Of a DNA stretch of 64,000 bases, positions 22,674-42,131 are shown in pieces. The stretch comes from an uncultured Thermoplasmatales archaeon (GTDB lineage Archaea; Thermoplasmatota; E2; DHVEG-1): assembly GCA_964638155.1 (NCBI GenBank), contig CAZWYI010000002.1:5727-69726 (forward strand). The letters run 5' to 3'. Position 1 is the stretch's first letter. Every line of letters starts with the position of its first letter. Below the pieces are notes generated by a model. The model saw only the letters and a program-made list of their open reading frames with translations, had not been told where the DNA came from and ran no database searches. The position numbers and the translations under genes are program-made.

Positions 22674-22695
22674 AAATTGTTTTTTATAACAATTT
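22674..22695. terminator. Perfect 8-bp inverted repeat hairpin (AAATTGTT-ttttat-AACAATTT) between convergent pyrH and ftsZ; a candidate bidirectional terminator.
   Basis: Seen directly in the sequence. It is flanked by an A-run (pyrH side) and a T-run, and the 3' arm touches the ftsZ stop codon. Confidence 0.4.
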
Positions 22696-23807
22696 TACCT
22701 TACAAAATCTATATCAAAGTTTTTGTTTGTTACTGTTTTTACAGGTGCTTTTTGCATAGCAGGAGACCCTTGTGGGCCAAGTAGATTAGGTGATTGTACA
22801 CCAGTCATAATAGCCATTACCCTGCATTTCCCTTCAAACTCTGGTAGAACTCTTGCACCAAGTATCACATTTGAATAGCAGTCAAGATCCTCTGTTAATG
22901 ATTTTGCAACATCTTGAACATATTTTAGGCTCATATTTGGGCCACCTGTAATATGAACAAGTGCTCCATTTGCACCGGTGTAATCAACATTTAGAAGTGG
23001 ATGATTCAATGCTTCTTGTACTATTGACTCAACTCCAGCATCCTCATCTGATTCACCCCAGAGCATAACAGATAGTCCACCTTGGTTCATAATTGATTTC
23101 ATATCTGCATAATCAAGGTTAATTAACGATGGTACAGTAATTGTTTCAGATAATCCTTTTACAGTTTCAGCTATCATTTGATCCATAACTGAAAATGCTT
23201 GGTTTATAGGTAGATTTGGTACAAACTCAAGAAGTCTGTTGTTATCAAGTACTACTGTACTGTCTGCTTTTATTCTAAGTTTATCAAGGCCTTCATCTGC
23301 TTTTATAAGTCTTGCTCTTTCTACATTGAATGGAGTTGATACCATGCAAGTAACTACTGAGTTATGTTTTTTTGCCATTTCAGCAACTACAGGTGCAGAA
23401 CCTGTGCCTGTTCCTCCGCCCATACCAGCAGTAATAAATACAAGATCTGAATCTTTTATCAAATTCTCTATTTCTCTACTTGATTCTTGGGCAGCTCTTT
23501 GTGCTACTTCTGGAAATCCACCTGCTCCTAGACCGCGGGTTAGGTTTTCACCAATTAATATTTTATGATCTGCTTCTACTAAATCAAGTGCTTGTTTGTC
23601 TGTATTTATAGCTATTGTATCTGCGCCTTTTACACCTAATTTGTTTAATCTAGTTATCGTGTTTCCTCCGGCTCCACCGCATCCAACAATTGTTATTCTT
23701 GGTGTTCCAAACATATCGTCTTCATTAATTTTTAATCTGTTTTCTTCATCTTTTTTATTTTCTACTGCATTTTTAATAAATGATTCCATATTCTTGTTTT
23801 CTCCCAT
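22695..23807 (-). CDS. ftsZ: Cell division GTPase FtsZ.
   Basis: Tubulin signature [22 protein letters not shown] near the N-terminus, and a GGAGG motif 8 nt upstream of the start. Confidence 0.9.
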
Positions 23808-23823
23808 ACAATTCCTCCTATTT

Positions 23824-23890
23824 GCTGGTAGTTTGAAGGACGCCCATCCCGAGGCGCCCTTCTGTTAAGGGGTGCATCCCATCCCCTCCT
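23824..23890. repeat. Composite conserved intergenic motif copy A (GCTGGTAGTTT … hairpin … TGCATCCCATCCCCTCCT), between cdrS and ftsZ.
   Basis: The 11-mer gctggtagttt (23824-23834) and 18-mer tgcatcccatcccctcct (23873-23890) are both repeated at 40346-40384. Between them lies the hairpin GAAGG-a-CGCC/GGCG-c-CCTTC at 23835-23862. Confidence 0.45.
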
Positions 23891-23910
23891 AATTATTTTA
23901 ATGTAGGTAG

Positions 23911-24150
23911 TTATTTTTTCATGTAAGGCTCAATGGACTCGACGGCAAGTTCCATTTCTTGGACTTTTTTTATTTTTTCCGCCTTTTCAATTAAATCATT
24001 GGCATAGTTTTTAATAAAATCGTTTACCGCATGTCGAATAACCTCCGACCTAGTTGCAAACTCTCCAGCTCTCACAAAAAGATCTATTGAGTGAACATTT
24101 CGCTGGGGTAATCTTATGGTTATCCTTTGCGTTTCCATTTTTCTCCTCAC
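23911..24150 (-). CDS. cdrS: Small ribbon-helix-helix DNA-binding protein immediately upstream of ftsZ; a likely CdrS-type cell-division regulator.
   Basis: RITIRLPQRNVHSIDLFVRAGEFATRSEVIRHAVNDFI is the RHH beta-alpha-alpha pattern. Its position directly 5' of and co-oriented with ftsZ fits the conserved euryarchaeal cdrS-ftsZ2 arrangement. Confidence 0.5.
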   Translation of the reverse strand: MRRKMETQRITIRLPQRNVHSIDLFVRAGEFATRSEVIRHAVNDFIKNYANDLIEKAEKIKKVQEMELAVESIEPYMKK

Positions 24151-28585: not shown

Positions 28586-28708
28586 GTCGGGGTGGCTCAG
28601 CCTGGTTAGAGCGCCTGACTCATAAGCGCAGCTTAAAGGGTTCGAAAATAGTTGCCTTTATGGCGTTAAGATATCAGGAGGTCGCGGGTTCAGATCCCGC
28701 CCCCGACA
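28586..28708 (+). tRNA. tRNA-Met (elongator; anticodon CAT) with a ~48-nt canonical-position intron (between nt 37/38, intron ~28625-28672).
   Basis: Acceptor GTCGGGG/CCCCGAC, D-arm GCTC…GAGC, anticodon stem CCTGA/TCAGG split by an insert, loop CTCATA|A, T-arm GCGGG TTCAGAT CCCGC, discriminator A. G1-C72 argues against an initiator. Confidence 0.75.
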
Positions 28709-29158
28709 TACAAACTACTGACTCACCCCCTAAAAAAATTAAATTTACTAAACAGGTTCATATCCGGGATATTTTTAATATATTAACATAAAAACAAACA
28801 AGAAATTTCCAAACTTTAGTTTGCGAGATGAATCGTATGGTAAGATAATTTAAAAAACTGTTAAGTGTTTGTTCCCATAAATGGGAAAACTATCTCATTT
28901 TTGTCATTTAAGGGCTGACAATTTCTAGTATTTCCATAAAATTGCTTAAAAGGCTTTATAAAAAAAATATTGCTAAGGAGTTTATTTTAAAAATAATATG
29001 TGTTGAAAGTAGAAATTTACACAAAGCGAAGATTTTTTAAGTAAAATATATAAATAACAAGTAACATAACTAAGAACTGGTACGAGTAAGACCTGCTGAA
29101 AGAATGACGACTCCATAGCGAGTTTAGGACGAGTAAGCAGGAATCGTGCATTATTTTT

Positions 29159-40069: not shown

Positions 40070-40285
40070 ATGGCATTACCTTTAGACGTACTAGAAAAAT
40101 CAATGAACCAGAAGCTGTCACTTCTTTTAAAAGATGGAAGAGAAGTTGATGGAAAGCTATCAGGATATGATGAATATATGAACATGGTTCTAACAGATGT
40201 AGAAGAAACTGTTGGAGAAACAAAGAGAAGACTTGGAACAATTATCCTTAGAGGAAACAATGTTGTAAGTATATCTCTGTTATAA
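40070..40285 (+). CDS. Sm-like archaeal protein (SmAP/LSm).
   Basis: 71 aa, Sm1/Sm2 motifs (LKDGREVDGKLSGYDEYMNMVL; IILRGNNVVSI). Confidence 0.85.
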   Translation: MALPLDVLEKSMNQKLSLLLKDGREVDGKLSGYDEYMNMVLTDVEETVGETKRRLGTIILRGNNVVSISLL

Positions 40286-40334
40286 GCCTTTTAAGCGAAA
40301 TATATATATACATGTTACTTATTTGTTTACTATG

Positions 40335-40405
40335 GAAGGAATCGGGCTGGTAGTTTTTTGTTAGAGTGCATCCCATCCCCTCCTAGTGAGGCCAGCCTAC
40401 CTTCC
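40335..40405. repeat. Composite conserved intergenic motif copy B, embedded in a GGAAGG…GGCTGG/CCAGCC…CCTTCC hairpin, between the Sm gene and hutU.
   Basis: gctggtagttt (40346-40356) and tgcatcccatcccctcct (40367-40384) are identical to copy A. Flanking inverted repeats are ggaagg (40335-40340)/ccttcc (40400-40405) and ggctgg (40345-40350)/ccagcc (40392-40397). Confidence 0.45.
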
Positions 40406-40460
40406 CTTTTGATTATGTTTTTTTAAAAAAGATTTAAGTATAGTTTTAAGATACAACAAA

Positions 40461-42131
40461 ATGGTTTTTATGGGGAAAATTTTTAAGGCAACTACAGGAA
40501 AAAAAATTAGATGTAAAGGTTGGAGACAAGAAGCAATTCTTAGGATGCTTGAAAACAATCTTGAGAATGCTGAAATTCCTGAAGATTTAATTGTTTATGG
40601 TGGAACAGGTAGAGCTGCCAGAAACTGGGAAAGTCATGATAAAATAGTTGAAATTTTAAAAAACCTTGAATCAGATGAAACAATGATAATACAATCTGGT
40701 AAACCTGTAGCTGTTTTTAAAACATATAAAAATTCTCCTAGAGTTCTTATGGCTAATTCAAATATTGTTCCGCATTGGAGCAACTGGGAAAAGTTTCATG
40801 AGCTAGATAAATTAGGCTTAATTATGTATGGTCAGATGACGGCCGGGTCATGGTGTTATATAGGAACTCAAGGTATAATACAGGGAACATATGAAACATT
40901 TGCAGCTCTAGCTAAAAAACATTTTAATAGTGATCTTTCAGGTAAAATAGTTCTAACTGGTGGTGTTGGTGGTATGAGTGGTGCACAACCCTTATCTGTA
41001 AAAATGGCTGGTGGTGTGTGCATTGCTGTTGAATGTGATGAAAAACGTATTGATAGAAGAATAAAAGCAGGTTTTTGCGATAAAAAAATGTATGATATAG
41101 ATAAAGCTGTAGAACTTGCTCGTGAAAAAAAGAAAAACAAAGAGGCTTTTTCTATAGCTGTTCTTGGAAACTGTGCTGATATTCATCCTAAACTAGTGAA
41201 GAATGGTTTTAAACCAGATATAGTGACAGATCAAACAAGTGCCCATGATGAACTAAATGGATATGTTCCAGCGGGATATTTCGGTGATACACTTAAAGAT
41301 GCGGTTGAACTGAGAAAAAAAGATCCAAAGGCATATATTGATTTATCCTTTAGAAGTATGAAAGCACATTGTAAGGCAATGCTTGATTTTCAAAAAAGAG
41401 GTTCTGTTGTTTTTGACTATGGAAATAACCTTCGTGGTCAGGCAGAAAAAGCAGGTCTTAAAGATGCTTTTTCATATCCTGGTTTTGTTCCAGCCTATGT
41501 TAGACCTATGCTTGCAGTTGGCCGTGGTCCATTTAGATGGCTAGCATTAACAGGAAATCCGGATGATATTATTAAAACAGATAAAGCAATTCTTGAAATG
41601 TTTCCTGATAACAAAATTCTTTCCAACTGGATTACACTTGCCGAAGAAAACCTACCATGGGAAGGTCTTCCTGCTCGTGTATGCTGGCTTGGTTATGGTG
41701 AACGTGAGCGTTTTGCTTTAAAGATTAATGATATGATTAGAAATGGTGAAATAGGCCCTGTTGCAATAACTCGTGATCATTTGGATTCAGGTAGTGTTGC
41801 CTCACCGTATCGAGAAACAGAGGGTATGAAAGATGGAAGTGATGTAGTGGCAGATTGGCCACTATTAAATGCACTTTTAAATTGTGCGGCCGGTGCAGAC
41901 AATGTTCAGATTCATAATGGTGGAGGTGTTGGAATTGGTCTTTCGACTCATGCCGGTATGGTTGTAGTATGTGATGGAACAAAAGAAACTGATGAACGAA
42001 TAAAACGTGTTTTTAAAACCGATCCTGGTATGGGTGTAGTAAGACATGCTGATGCAGGATATAAAGAATCAATTGATCTAATAAAAAATTCTGATATCAG
42101 TTCACCTATGATAAAGAATAAGAAAAAATAA
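40461..42131 (+). CDS. hutU: Urocanate hydratase (urocanase).
   Basis: GWRQEAILRMLENNL, VYGGTGRAARNWESHD and the NAD-binding GGVGGMSGAQ motif; ~556 aa. Confidence 0.9.
   Translation: MVFMGKIFKATTGKKIRCKGWRQEAILRMLENNLENAEIPEDLIVYGGTGRAARNWESHDKIVEILKNLESDETMIIQSGKPVAVFKTYKNSPRVLMANSNIVPHWSNWEKFHELDKLGLIMYGQMTAGSWCYIGTQGIIQGTYETFAALAKKHFNSDLSGKIVLTGGVGGMSGAQPLSVKMAGGVCIAVECDEKRIDRRIKAGFCDKKMYDIDKAVELAREKKKNKEAFSIAVLGNCADIHPKLVKNGFKPDIVTDQTSAHDELNGYVPAGYFGDTLKDAVELRKKDPKAYIDLSFRSMKAHCKAMLDFQKRGSVVFDYGNNLRGQAEKAGLKDAFSYPGFVPAYVRPMLAVGRGPFRWLALTGNPDDIIKTDKAILEMFPDNKILSNWITLAEENLPWEGLPARVCWLGYGERERFALKINDMIRNGEIGPVAITRDHLDSGSVASPYRETEGMKDGSDVVADWPLLNALLNCAAGADNVQIHNGGGVGIGLSTHAGMVVVCDGTKETDERIKRVFKTDPGMGVVRHADAGYKESIDLIKNSDISSPMIKNKKK

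Follow-up and report, generated by a model that had tools for sequence, protein, structure and literature searches.

Two unrelated intergenic regions of the window (the whole 64-kb stretch of DNA that was analysed, which is archaeal and has about 30% G+C) carry the same composite motif on the same strand, and we asked what this repetition represents. An 11-mer (GCTGGTAGTTT) occurs at 23824-23834 and 40346-40356 and an 18-mer (TGCATCCCATCCCCTCCT) at 23873-23890 and 40367-40384, in each case on the + strand, so that the order, orientation and positions given in a preliminary description of this DNA were confirmed. The longest exact run common to the locus in the cdrS-ftsZ spacer (copy A) and the second locus (copy B) is 20 nt (GTGCATCCCATCCCCTCCTA, 23872-23891 and 40366-40385), and a TGTTA between the 11-mer and this 20-mer is also shared, giving 36 nt in common, in the same order, at a distance of 16.5 kb. 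With up to three mismatches allowed, the 18-mer has two matches in the window against 0.01 expected, and none of 100 shuffles reached two. The structures reported around the blocks are likewise present: a hairpin between them in copy A (GAAGGACGCC, 23835-23844, with GGCGCCCTTC, 23853-23862), two enclosing stems in copy B (GGAAGG/CCTTCC, 40334-40339 and 40400-40405, and GGCTGG/CCAGCC), and an 18-mer that reads AGGAGGGGATGGGATGCA on the ftsZ-sense strand and resembles a Shine-Dalgarno (SD) sequence. The gene calls around copy A were also right, namely FtsZ (Pfam Tubulin and FtsZ_C) and a cdrS-like ribbon-helix-helix (RHH) protein.

The preliminary description had proposed a search for further copies, and would have taken the motif for a chance duplication had only two copies existed and relatives lacked conservation. 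This is clearly not the situation: the exact 18-mer was found in at least 118 loci (one genome per species), at least about 100 of them from Thermoplasmatota MAGs, counts that are biased by the use of the exact 18-mer in the first genome scan and were partly corrected by 11 loci retrieved through their proteins. The two copies are different things, a small RNA (sRNA) gene in copy B and a complementary site in the ftsZ leader in copy A (Table 1). They have the same DNA orientation, and copy B is read from the + strand and copy A from the - strand, so the two RNAs are complementary.

Table 1. Positions in the window of the predicted sRNA gene, the cdrS-ftsZ leader element and neighbouring genes.
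Feature	Position	Strand	Remarks
LSm (Sm-like archaeal protein) gene	40070..40285	+	Pfam LSM, E=3.9e-23; directly 5' of the sRNA promoter
Putative sRNA promoter: BRE-like GCGAAA and TATA box (TATATATATA)	40295..40310	+	Spacing kept in the family
Predicted small RNA gene, about 72 nt	40334..40405	+	Stems P1 (GGAAGG/CCUUCC) and P2 (GGCUGG/CCAGCC) close a loop of about 40 nt; covariance model, covariation
Predicted sRNA pairing segments 2 and 3: GCUGGUAGUUU, then UGUUA	40346..40365	+	Complementary to leader AAACUACCAGC and UAACA; U-rich tract
Predicted sRNA seed in the loop: GUGCAUCCCAUCCCCUCCUA	40366..40385	+	18-mer (40367-40384) invariant
Oligo-T tracts: T4 (40407-40410) and T7 (40418-40424)	40407..40424	+	Likely archaeal terminator of the sRNA
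Urocanase gene hutU	40461..42131	+	Downstream of copy B
cdrS-like ribbon-helix-helix gene	23911..24138	-	Pfam RHH_8 and RHH_1; stop codon 20 nt upstream of the motif
Predicted primary sRNA-complementary site: UAGGAGGGGAUGGGAUGCAC	23872..23891	-	Perfect complement of the seed; form SD + 7 nt + AUG
Predicted mRNA hairpin: GAAGGGCGCC-UCGGGAUG-GGCGUCCUUC	23835..23862	-	Loop with a second seed-complementary GGGAUG
Predicted second pairing block: AAACUACCAGC	23824..23834	-	-27 to -17 from the ftsZ AUG
ftsZ SD AGGAGGA (23813-23819) and start codon (23805-23807)	23805..23819	-	AGGAGGAAUGG conserved, itself a diverged copy of the motif
ftsZ, presumed regulated gene	22695..23807	-	Pfam Tubulin, E=6.6e-42, and FtsZ_C

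Sequence and covariation predict that copy B is the genuine gene of a small RNA with its own promoter. A covariance model built from 57 sequences (CM R1) scored copy B at 92.2 bits on the + strand and 7.9 bits on the - strand of the window, and found 97 full-length family members (45-98 bits) in Thermoplasmatota MAGs, all carriers being uncultured. Nearly all 18-mer loci have one layout, in which GGAAGG, GGCUGG, a U-rich stretch, the 18-mer, (A)GUGAGG, CCAGCC and CCUUCC follow each other. The covariance analysis of copies that had been suggested showed that the copy B stems covary: on the CM-based alignment, 94.9% of the cells at the 13 stem pairs were paired and 43 cells held a compensatory change, nine of the 13 pairs had changed on both sides, and none of 500 shuffles reached the observed values. 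Slid controls of stem pairing gave 32-64% only. RNAalifold on a MAFFT alignment returned P2 only, as P1 was misaligned in divergent lineages, and realignment with the model recovered it. The support for the structure comes from covariation, since the minimum free energy (MFE) of the sRNA (z -0.8) was not better than that of shuffled sequences. The 18-mer occupies +33 to +50 of the sRNA, inside the transcribed loop between the covarying stems; in the MFE fold the seed is mostly unpaired, with a 3' end that is partly able to pair inside the sRNA (CCUC/GAGG).

Signals expected of an independent transcription unit recur across the family. Relative to the first G of P1, CGAAA stands at -38 ± 1 in 66 of 90 unique upstream regions and an A/T hexamer at -30 ± 2, a spacing that is also found in genomes with 60-70% G+C. 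A run of four or more T follows the 3' end of P1 within 12 nt in 59 of 91 unique members, and in 68 of 91 the stretch from P2 to the seed contains a run of four or more U.

Several other identities for copy B were considered and rejected. A tRNA or split-tRNA reading of GGGCUGGUAG...CCAGCC was called neither by ARAGORN nor by the Rfam tRNA model. For a C/D-box or H/ACA guide, the consensus holds no C (RUGAUGA), D (CUGA) or ACA boxes and there was no Rfam match of snoRNA type, and the defining motifs of G-quadruplexes and K-turns were absent by eye. A hutU leader or riboswitch would agree with the 48 loci in which hutU follows, but the genes downstream of paralogues and of GC-rich members are unrelated or lie on the opposite strand; since the downstream gene often lies on the opposite strand in the GC-rich lineages, the sRNA is not a leader. 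No Rfam family matched copy A or copy B at its gathering score, and at E≤10 the two loci gave chance-level matches only (lncRNA fragments, ar14, a sobemovirus frameshift element). A literature search gave no prior report of such an sRNA or ftsZ-leader element in Thermoplasmatota or archaea. The sRNA family is previously undescribed and absent from Rfam.

Variant members were also seen. Many Thermoplasmatota MAGs (L001, L026, L046, L073, L105 and others) have a second sRNA paralogue with the same seed and the promoter GCGAAAAAGGTACTTAAA but with LSm not adjacent, and in eight loci an 87-aa protein without a Pfam match lies downstream of this paralogue. One locus (L091, 3134-3162, - strand) holds the sRNA loop sequence with P1/P2 stems that are not recognisable, and in another (L083, 7776-7819, + strand) the sRNA ends right after the seed, from an insertion or an assembly break.

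The same searches recorded other features of the window. At 28586-28708 (+ strand) lies a tRNA-Met (CAU), its intron about 50 nt long, which scored 55.4 bits with the Rfam tRNA model and was missed by ARAGORN. A DUF3800-X RNA motif (57.6 bits; gathering score 38.2) at 29080-29149 (+ strand) stands beside a DUF3800 gene (29159-29812, - strand; Pfam E=6e-19), which is the expected association of this motif, here in an archaeon. Between 61000 and 62600 there was no listed ORF of 80 aa or more, and G+C is about 0.35 from 56 kb to the window end; a very long ORF, of a kind absent from the list, probably runs past the end of the window.

The sRNA gene has a conserved neighbour. An LSm gene was found on the same strand and upstream of the sRNA in at least 59 Thermoplasmatota loci (tblastn; 51-91% identity), and the sRNA promoter fills the short gap between the two. 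When LSm loci of a distant GC-rich lineage were fetched by protein identity alone, all three held the full sRNA (70-82 bits) with the exact 18-mer, 110-200 nt downstream of LSm. The adjacency of the genes, together with the U-rich tract (a candidate Sm/LSm site), suggests that LSm probably assists the sRNA. GC-rich lineages (L170-L172, L004, L013 and others) additionally have an XPD/Rad3-type helicase gene (DEAD_2, Helicase_C_2) that precedes LSm and the sRNA, and the helicase-LSm-sRNA order is conserved among them.

Copy A is of another kind. All 42 metagenome loci with the motif were cdrS-ftsZ spacers, as collected with a scan pattern (K at position -2) that excludes copy B, and the 18-mer was always antisense to ftsZ. 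The layout was the same in all 42: cdrS stop, motif, hairpin, AAACUACCAG(C), SD and AUG. An RHH gene lay directly upstream of ftsZ in every Thermoplasmatota locus fetched, and the core of the motif (GAUGGGAUGC) was present in eight of eight cdrS-ftsZ spacers fetched by protein alone; in the AT-rich clade, three leaders retrieved in this way keep 17-18 of the 18 motif positions. Beyond the motif, AACUACCA was invariant in 40 of 40 unique leaders of the AT-rich clade, though it lies outside the search pattern. The covariance model of the sRNA matched copy A only locally (model positions 31-56, 21.3 bits, against 92.2 bits over the full length of copy B), and 50 other leaders likewise gave local matches to the loop part (16-29 bits).

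Which strand the leader structure belongs to was decided by its variation. Read on the ftsZ-sense strand, the hairpin was paired in 400 of 400 cells, G-U accounting for 32 of these, and two pairs showed compensatory changes; on the + strand the only mismatches were 33 A·C, with no G·T. As G-U pairs on the - strand appear as A·C mismatches on the + strand, the hairpin belongs to the ftsZ-sense RNA. The predicted folds of copy A agree (-34.3 kcal/mol, z -3.6, on the - strand vs -28.4 kcal/mol, z -1.9, on the + strand). Comparative sequence evidence thus indicates that copy A belongs to the cdrS-ftsZ mRNA and is not a second copy of the gene. The shared + orientation had been taken to argue against a 5'-UTR feature, but the reverse is true: copy A is a - strand mRNA element with a hairpin fully paired only in the ftsZ sense.

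The motif has the form of a ribosome binding site followed by a start codon. In our reading the ftsZ start region has here a putative decoy or duplicate, which would offer a high-affinity site to the sRNA. A conserved upstream ORF or leader peptide from the two AUGs of the motif was rejected, as frame, length and peptide vary in 41 leaders. Where the motif AUG is in frame by chance, gene callers give an FtsZ of 394-404 aa. The N-terminal FtsZ extension of about 25 residues in relatives (P0008, P0012, P0119; L034, L120, L125; others) is probably a systematic misannotation of the start. One 1.6-kb metagenome contig (L128, 1-900) carries the stretch from the cdrS 3' end through the leader into the 5' end of ftsZ twice in tandem, with the junction inside ftsZ, most likely from a chimeric assembly of two strains.

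Given the complementarity of the two RNAs, we assessed how strongly they are predicted to pair. Cofolding of the window sRNA with the leader gave a ΔΔG of -29.4 kcal/mol, compared with -6.4 ± 2.8 for the shuffled sRNA, and three other same-genome pairs gave -22 to -26. The predicted duplex is a three-way junction made of a 20-22 bp seed helix, UGUUA/UAACA and GCUGGUAGUUU/AAACUACCAGC, around an mRNA hairpin that is retained, and the GCUGGUAGUUU/AAACUACCAGC pairing occurred in every matched-genome cofold. Because the second block overlaps P2, full pairing needs a partial opening of the sRNA. The GGGAUG of the mRNA hairpin loop could in addition make a kissing contact with the seed, judging from their complementary letters. 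Within the 64-kb window the cdrS-ftsZ spacer was the outstanding target of the sRNA loop by duplex energy, about 10 sd from the mean, and the search returned no other target comparable to it. The seed and the core are both invariant and show no covariation with each other, so that pairing is supported by complementarity and by lineage-specific extensions, not by compensatory seed changes. Across 1.12 Mb of Thermoplasmatota DNA, GATGGGATGC occurred 169 times and, besides the degenerate, sRNA-like locus L091, only twice outside sRNA genes and ftsZ leaders. These two exceptions are L025 3373-3382 (+ strand) and L010 7862; the former lies at the start (GGUGAUGGGAUGCC) of a gene for a 156-aa membrane protein, divergent from cdrS, and may be a second target.

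The extensions came into view in distant GC-rich lineages, which were reached with the FtsZ of L025 as query, the window protein having given only relatives at least 84% identical. In L025 (FtsZ 61% identical; 66% G+C), AGGAGGGGAUGGGAUGCA follows 8 nt after the cdrS stop, and the true ftsZ start region (GGAGGAGAUGGGAUGCAG) is one mismatch away from the complement of the 18-mer. Five of five further spacers found through FtsZ homologues (L161-L165) have (A/G)GGGAUGGGAUGC(A/C) in the ftsZ sense, and after this core come a stable hairpin of unrelated sequence, ACC(A/G)G, the SD and the AUG. L161 and L163 hold three copies of the core each, one of them at the true ftsZ start region, and the core is thus repeated at the real start of ftsZ in L025, L161 and L163. 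No other occurrence of the 9-mer core was seen in the 11-21 kb GC-rich loci. All six GC-rich leaders also carry GCCU(C/U)AC upstream of the core (GCCCCAC in L025), complementary to GUGAGGC, which is conserved in the sRNA, and correctly placed for antiparallel pairing. Lineages therefore extend the pairing through different segments of the sRNA, which fits RNA-RNA pairing and not a protein site. Cofolds of GC-rich pairs, in which sRNA and leader came from different genomes, were modestly better than shuffles (ΔΔG -12 to -18). The ftsZ locus of Methanolobus, used as an outgroup, had neither cdrS nor the motif.

We consider it probable, from these sequence relationships, that a trans-acting antisense sRNA pairs with the cdrS-ftsZ leader, where it would most likely lower ftsZ translation or alter mRNA stability, probably with LSm. 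The sRNA would be transcribed from the + strand, from a BRE/TATA promoter of its own that closely follows the LSm gene, and P1 and P2 would hold a loop open that presents the U-rich tract and the invariant 18-nt C/U-rich seed UGCAUCCCAUCCCCUCCU. On the - strand cdrS-ftsZ mRNA, the leader site of the form AGGAGG + 7 nt + AUG would be bound through the 20-nt seed, the 5-nt UGUUA/UAACA and the 11-nt block whose end lies 17 nt ahead of the ftsZ start codon, with a three-way junction forming around the conserved mRNA hairpin; in GC-rich relatives the seed also matches the true ftsZ SD and start codon. We infer that this pairing takes place in vivo. The second block lies within the footprint usually ascribed to the 30S subunit. 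Its closeness to the AUG, together with the seed lying over the SD and AUG in GC-rich lineages, makes repression of translation the most likely effect, with changed processing or stability of the bicistronic mRNA as the alternative, and as to the direction of regulation, repression is our guess.

Four other explanations were weighed against this one. Copy A might itself be a + strand small RNA gene, with copy B as its paralogue, that acts cis-antisense to the ftsZ 5' region as StfZ does. The common DNA orientation and the 36 nt shared in order would suit such a gene, as would a TATA-like TAATAAAT about 45 nt upstream on the + strand with T-runs after the motif, and an antisense RNA has been reported near the ftsZ2 5' end in H. 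volcanii (PMC8303175). However, the TATA-like stretch, seen in the AT-rich clade, corresponds to conserved FtsZ codons (ESFI) read in reverse, GC-rich relatives are without an A/T hexamer within about 100 nt on that strand, and on the + strand the hairpin has A·C mismatches and no G·U. The independent small RNA gene of the preliminary description therefore stands for copy B, with its promoter, terminator, covarying stems and phylum-wide conservation, and fails for copy A, which is without P1/P2 and matches the covariance model only locally; as an account of copy A we hold it to be very unlikely. The shared sequence might instead be a DNA operator through which a transcription factor, such as CdrS or a different RHH protein, controls ftsZ together with the sRNA gene, the RNA complementarity being a by-product. 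The motif does adjoin the gene of a DNA-binding RHH protein, and GC-rich spacers hold two to three direct repeats of the core, as operator arrays do. Yet the site lies inside a transcribed, structured sRNA loop between covarying stems, the leader site overlaps the ftsZ SD and AUG in GC-rich relatives, and a protein site predicts none of the complementarity that is extended through different sRNA segments in each lineage. An invariant, non-palindromic site of 18-20 bp is also unusual for RHH dimers, and we regard an operator as quite improbable.

An explanation that we find unlikely but take more seriously is that the leader acts alone, as a standby or decoy site for ribosomes, as a short upstream ORF, or as a protein site with its hairpin, while the main function of the sRNA lies elsewhere; the complementarity would then be a relic, left from an inverted duplication of the ftsZ leader that gave rise to the sRNA, or the leader would simply sponge the sRNA. 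The SD-AUG geometry of the motif is ideal, gene callers start FtsZ at the motif when it is in frame, and the seed keeps its sequence also in lineages with differing leaders, a hint that something else constrains the sRNA as well. On the other hand, no frame, length or peptide of the upstream ORF is conserved, and the full core is found elsewhere in 1.12 Mb at two exceptions only. A relic should erode with time; instead, AACUACCA and the core do not vary, and new complementary segments appear in other lineages. A miniature mobile element, which the preliminary description had also allowed, or a chance duplication is hardly credible. Two same-orientation copies 16.5 kb apart might suggest either, but more than 150 loci fall into two fixed genomic contexts, the only ones in the 1.12 Mb, and the conservation is deep, with flanking genes 51-91% identical. 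The flanks, read by eye, had no terminal inverted repeats or target-site duplications, the 0.01 matches expected speak against chance, and the conserved synteny already refutes this explanation. The trans-acting antisense sRNA thus remains our preferred reading.

A wider proposal, to which we give somewhat less than even credence, is that the LSm-linked, phylum-wide antisense sRNA would be a dedicated post-transcriptional switch of FtsZ in Thermoplasmatota, recognising a decoy (in some lineages the true) start site via a three-way junction. If true, this would be the most deeply conserved archaeal sRNA-target pair known, the first archaeal LSm linked with one particular sRNA and one particular essential target, and an independent equivalent, in archaea, of bacterial DicF. 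To our knowledge, targets have been assigned to only a handful of trans-acting sRNAs from archaea, and the conservation of these few stays within a single genus. What archaeal LSm proteins contribute to sRNA regulation is still being worked out (PMC5867862), and in haloarchaea there are indications that the cdrS-ftsZ2 operon is controlled post-transcriptionally (PMC8303175). The locus provides a sequence-defined hypothesis, consisting of an LSm-linked sRNA family present in more than 100 Thermoplasmatota genomes, its invariant 18-nt seed and, in the leader of ftsZ, an essential cell-division gene, a conserved site complementary to that seed. For annotation, the putative decoy start adds about 25 residues to the called FtsZ of some genomes, and the sRNA family could enter Rfam from the present alignment.

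By analogy, DicF is functionally the closest known system, and sRNA41 and sRNA154 of Methanosarcina mazei are the closest in archaea. The E. coli DicF sRNA represses ftsZ, works with Hfq and inhibits cell division (PMC5069750). Like DicF (RF00039), the archaeal sRNA is predicted to be trans-encoded and complementary to the ftsZ initiation region, the Sm-family chaperone of DicF being Hfq. DicF, however, is bacterial and prophage-encoded and has no likeness in sequence or structure to the LSm-linked sRNA, for which there was no Rfam match, whereas the archaeal gene is chromosomal, phylum-wide and LSm-linked. The pairing of DicF is short and imperfect, in contrast to the 20 + 5 + 11 nt, enclosing a hairpin of the mRNA, that are predicted to pair in the archaeal system. 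In M. mazei, sRNA41 covers ribosome binding sites of polycistronic transcripts (PMC5867862). With sRNA41 and sRNA154, which repress translation at the ribosome binding site (PMC5867862), the sRNA described here shares an archaeal intergenic gene and C/U-rich, anti-SD-like loops. Those two do not resemble it in sequence or structure, are conserved in one genus only, have several metabolic targets and no reported LSm synteny, while the present sRNA has one dominant predicted target and an 18-nt invariant seed and is phylum-wide.

Three further comparisons concern parts of the system. StfZ, at the ftsA-ftsZ junction of E. coli, is likewise an antisense RNA complementary to a region just upstream of ftsZ (PMC9628754), but it is transcribed at its target locus, from the other strand, whereas the gene of the archaeal sRNA lies at a distance of 16.5 kb and has a putative promoter to itself, and no antisense promoter is evident at ftsZ. 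The αr14-type CCUCCUCCC sRNAs of alphaproteobacteria (RF02344) similarly expose anti-SD-like C/U-rich loops; they belong to another domain of life and have another architecture, and the 14.3-bit match of αr14 on copy A is at chance level (gathering score 58.8). As in CopA/CopT and hok/sok, the loop of the target hairpin (GGGAUG) is complementary to the loop of the regulator and a multi-helix junction is predicted; those are cis-encoded plasmid control systems, and for the archaeal sRNA a kissing step is suggested by sequence only.
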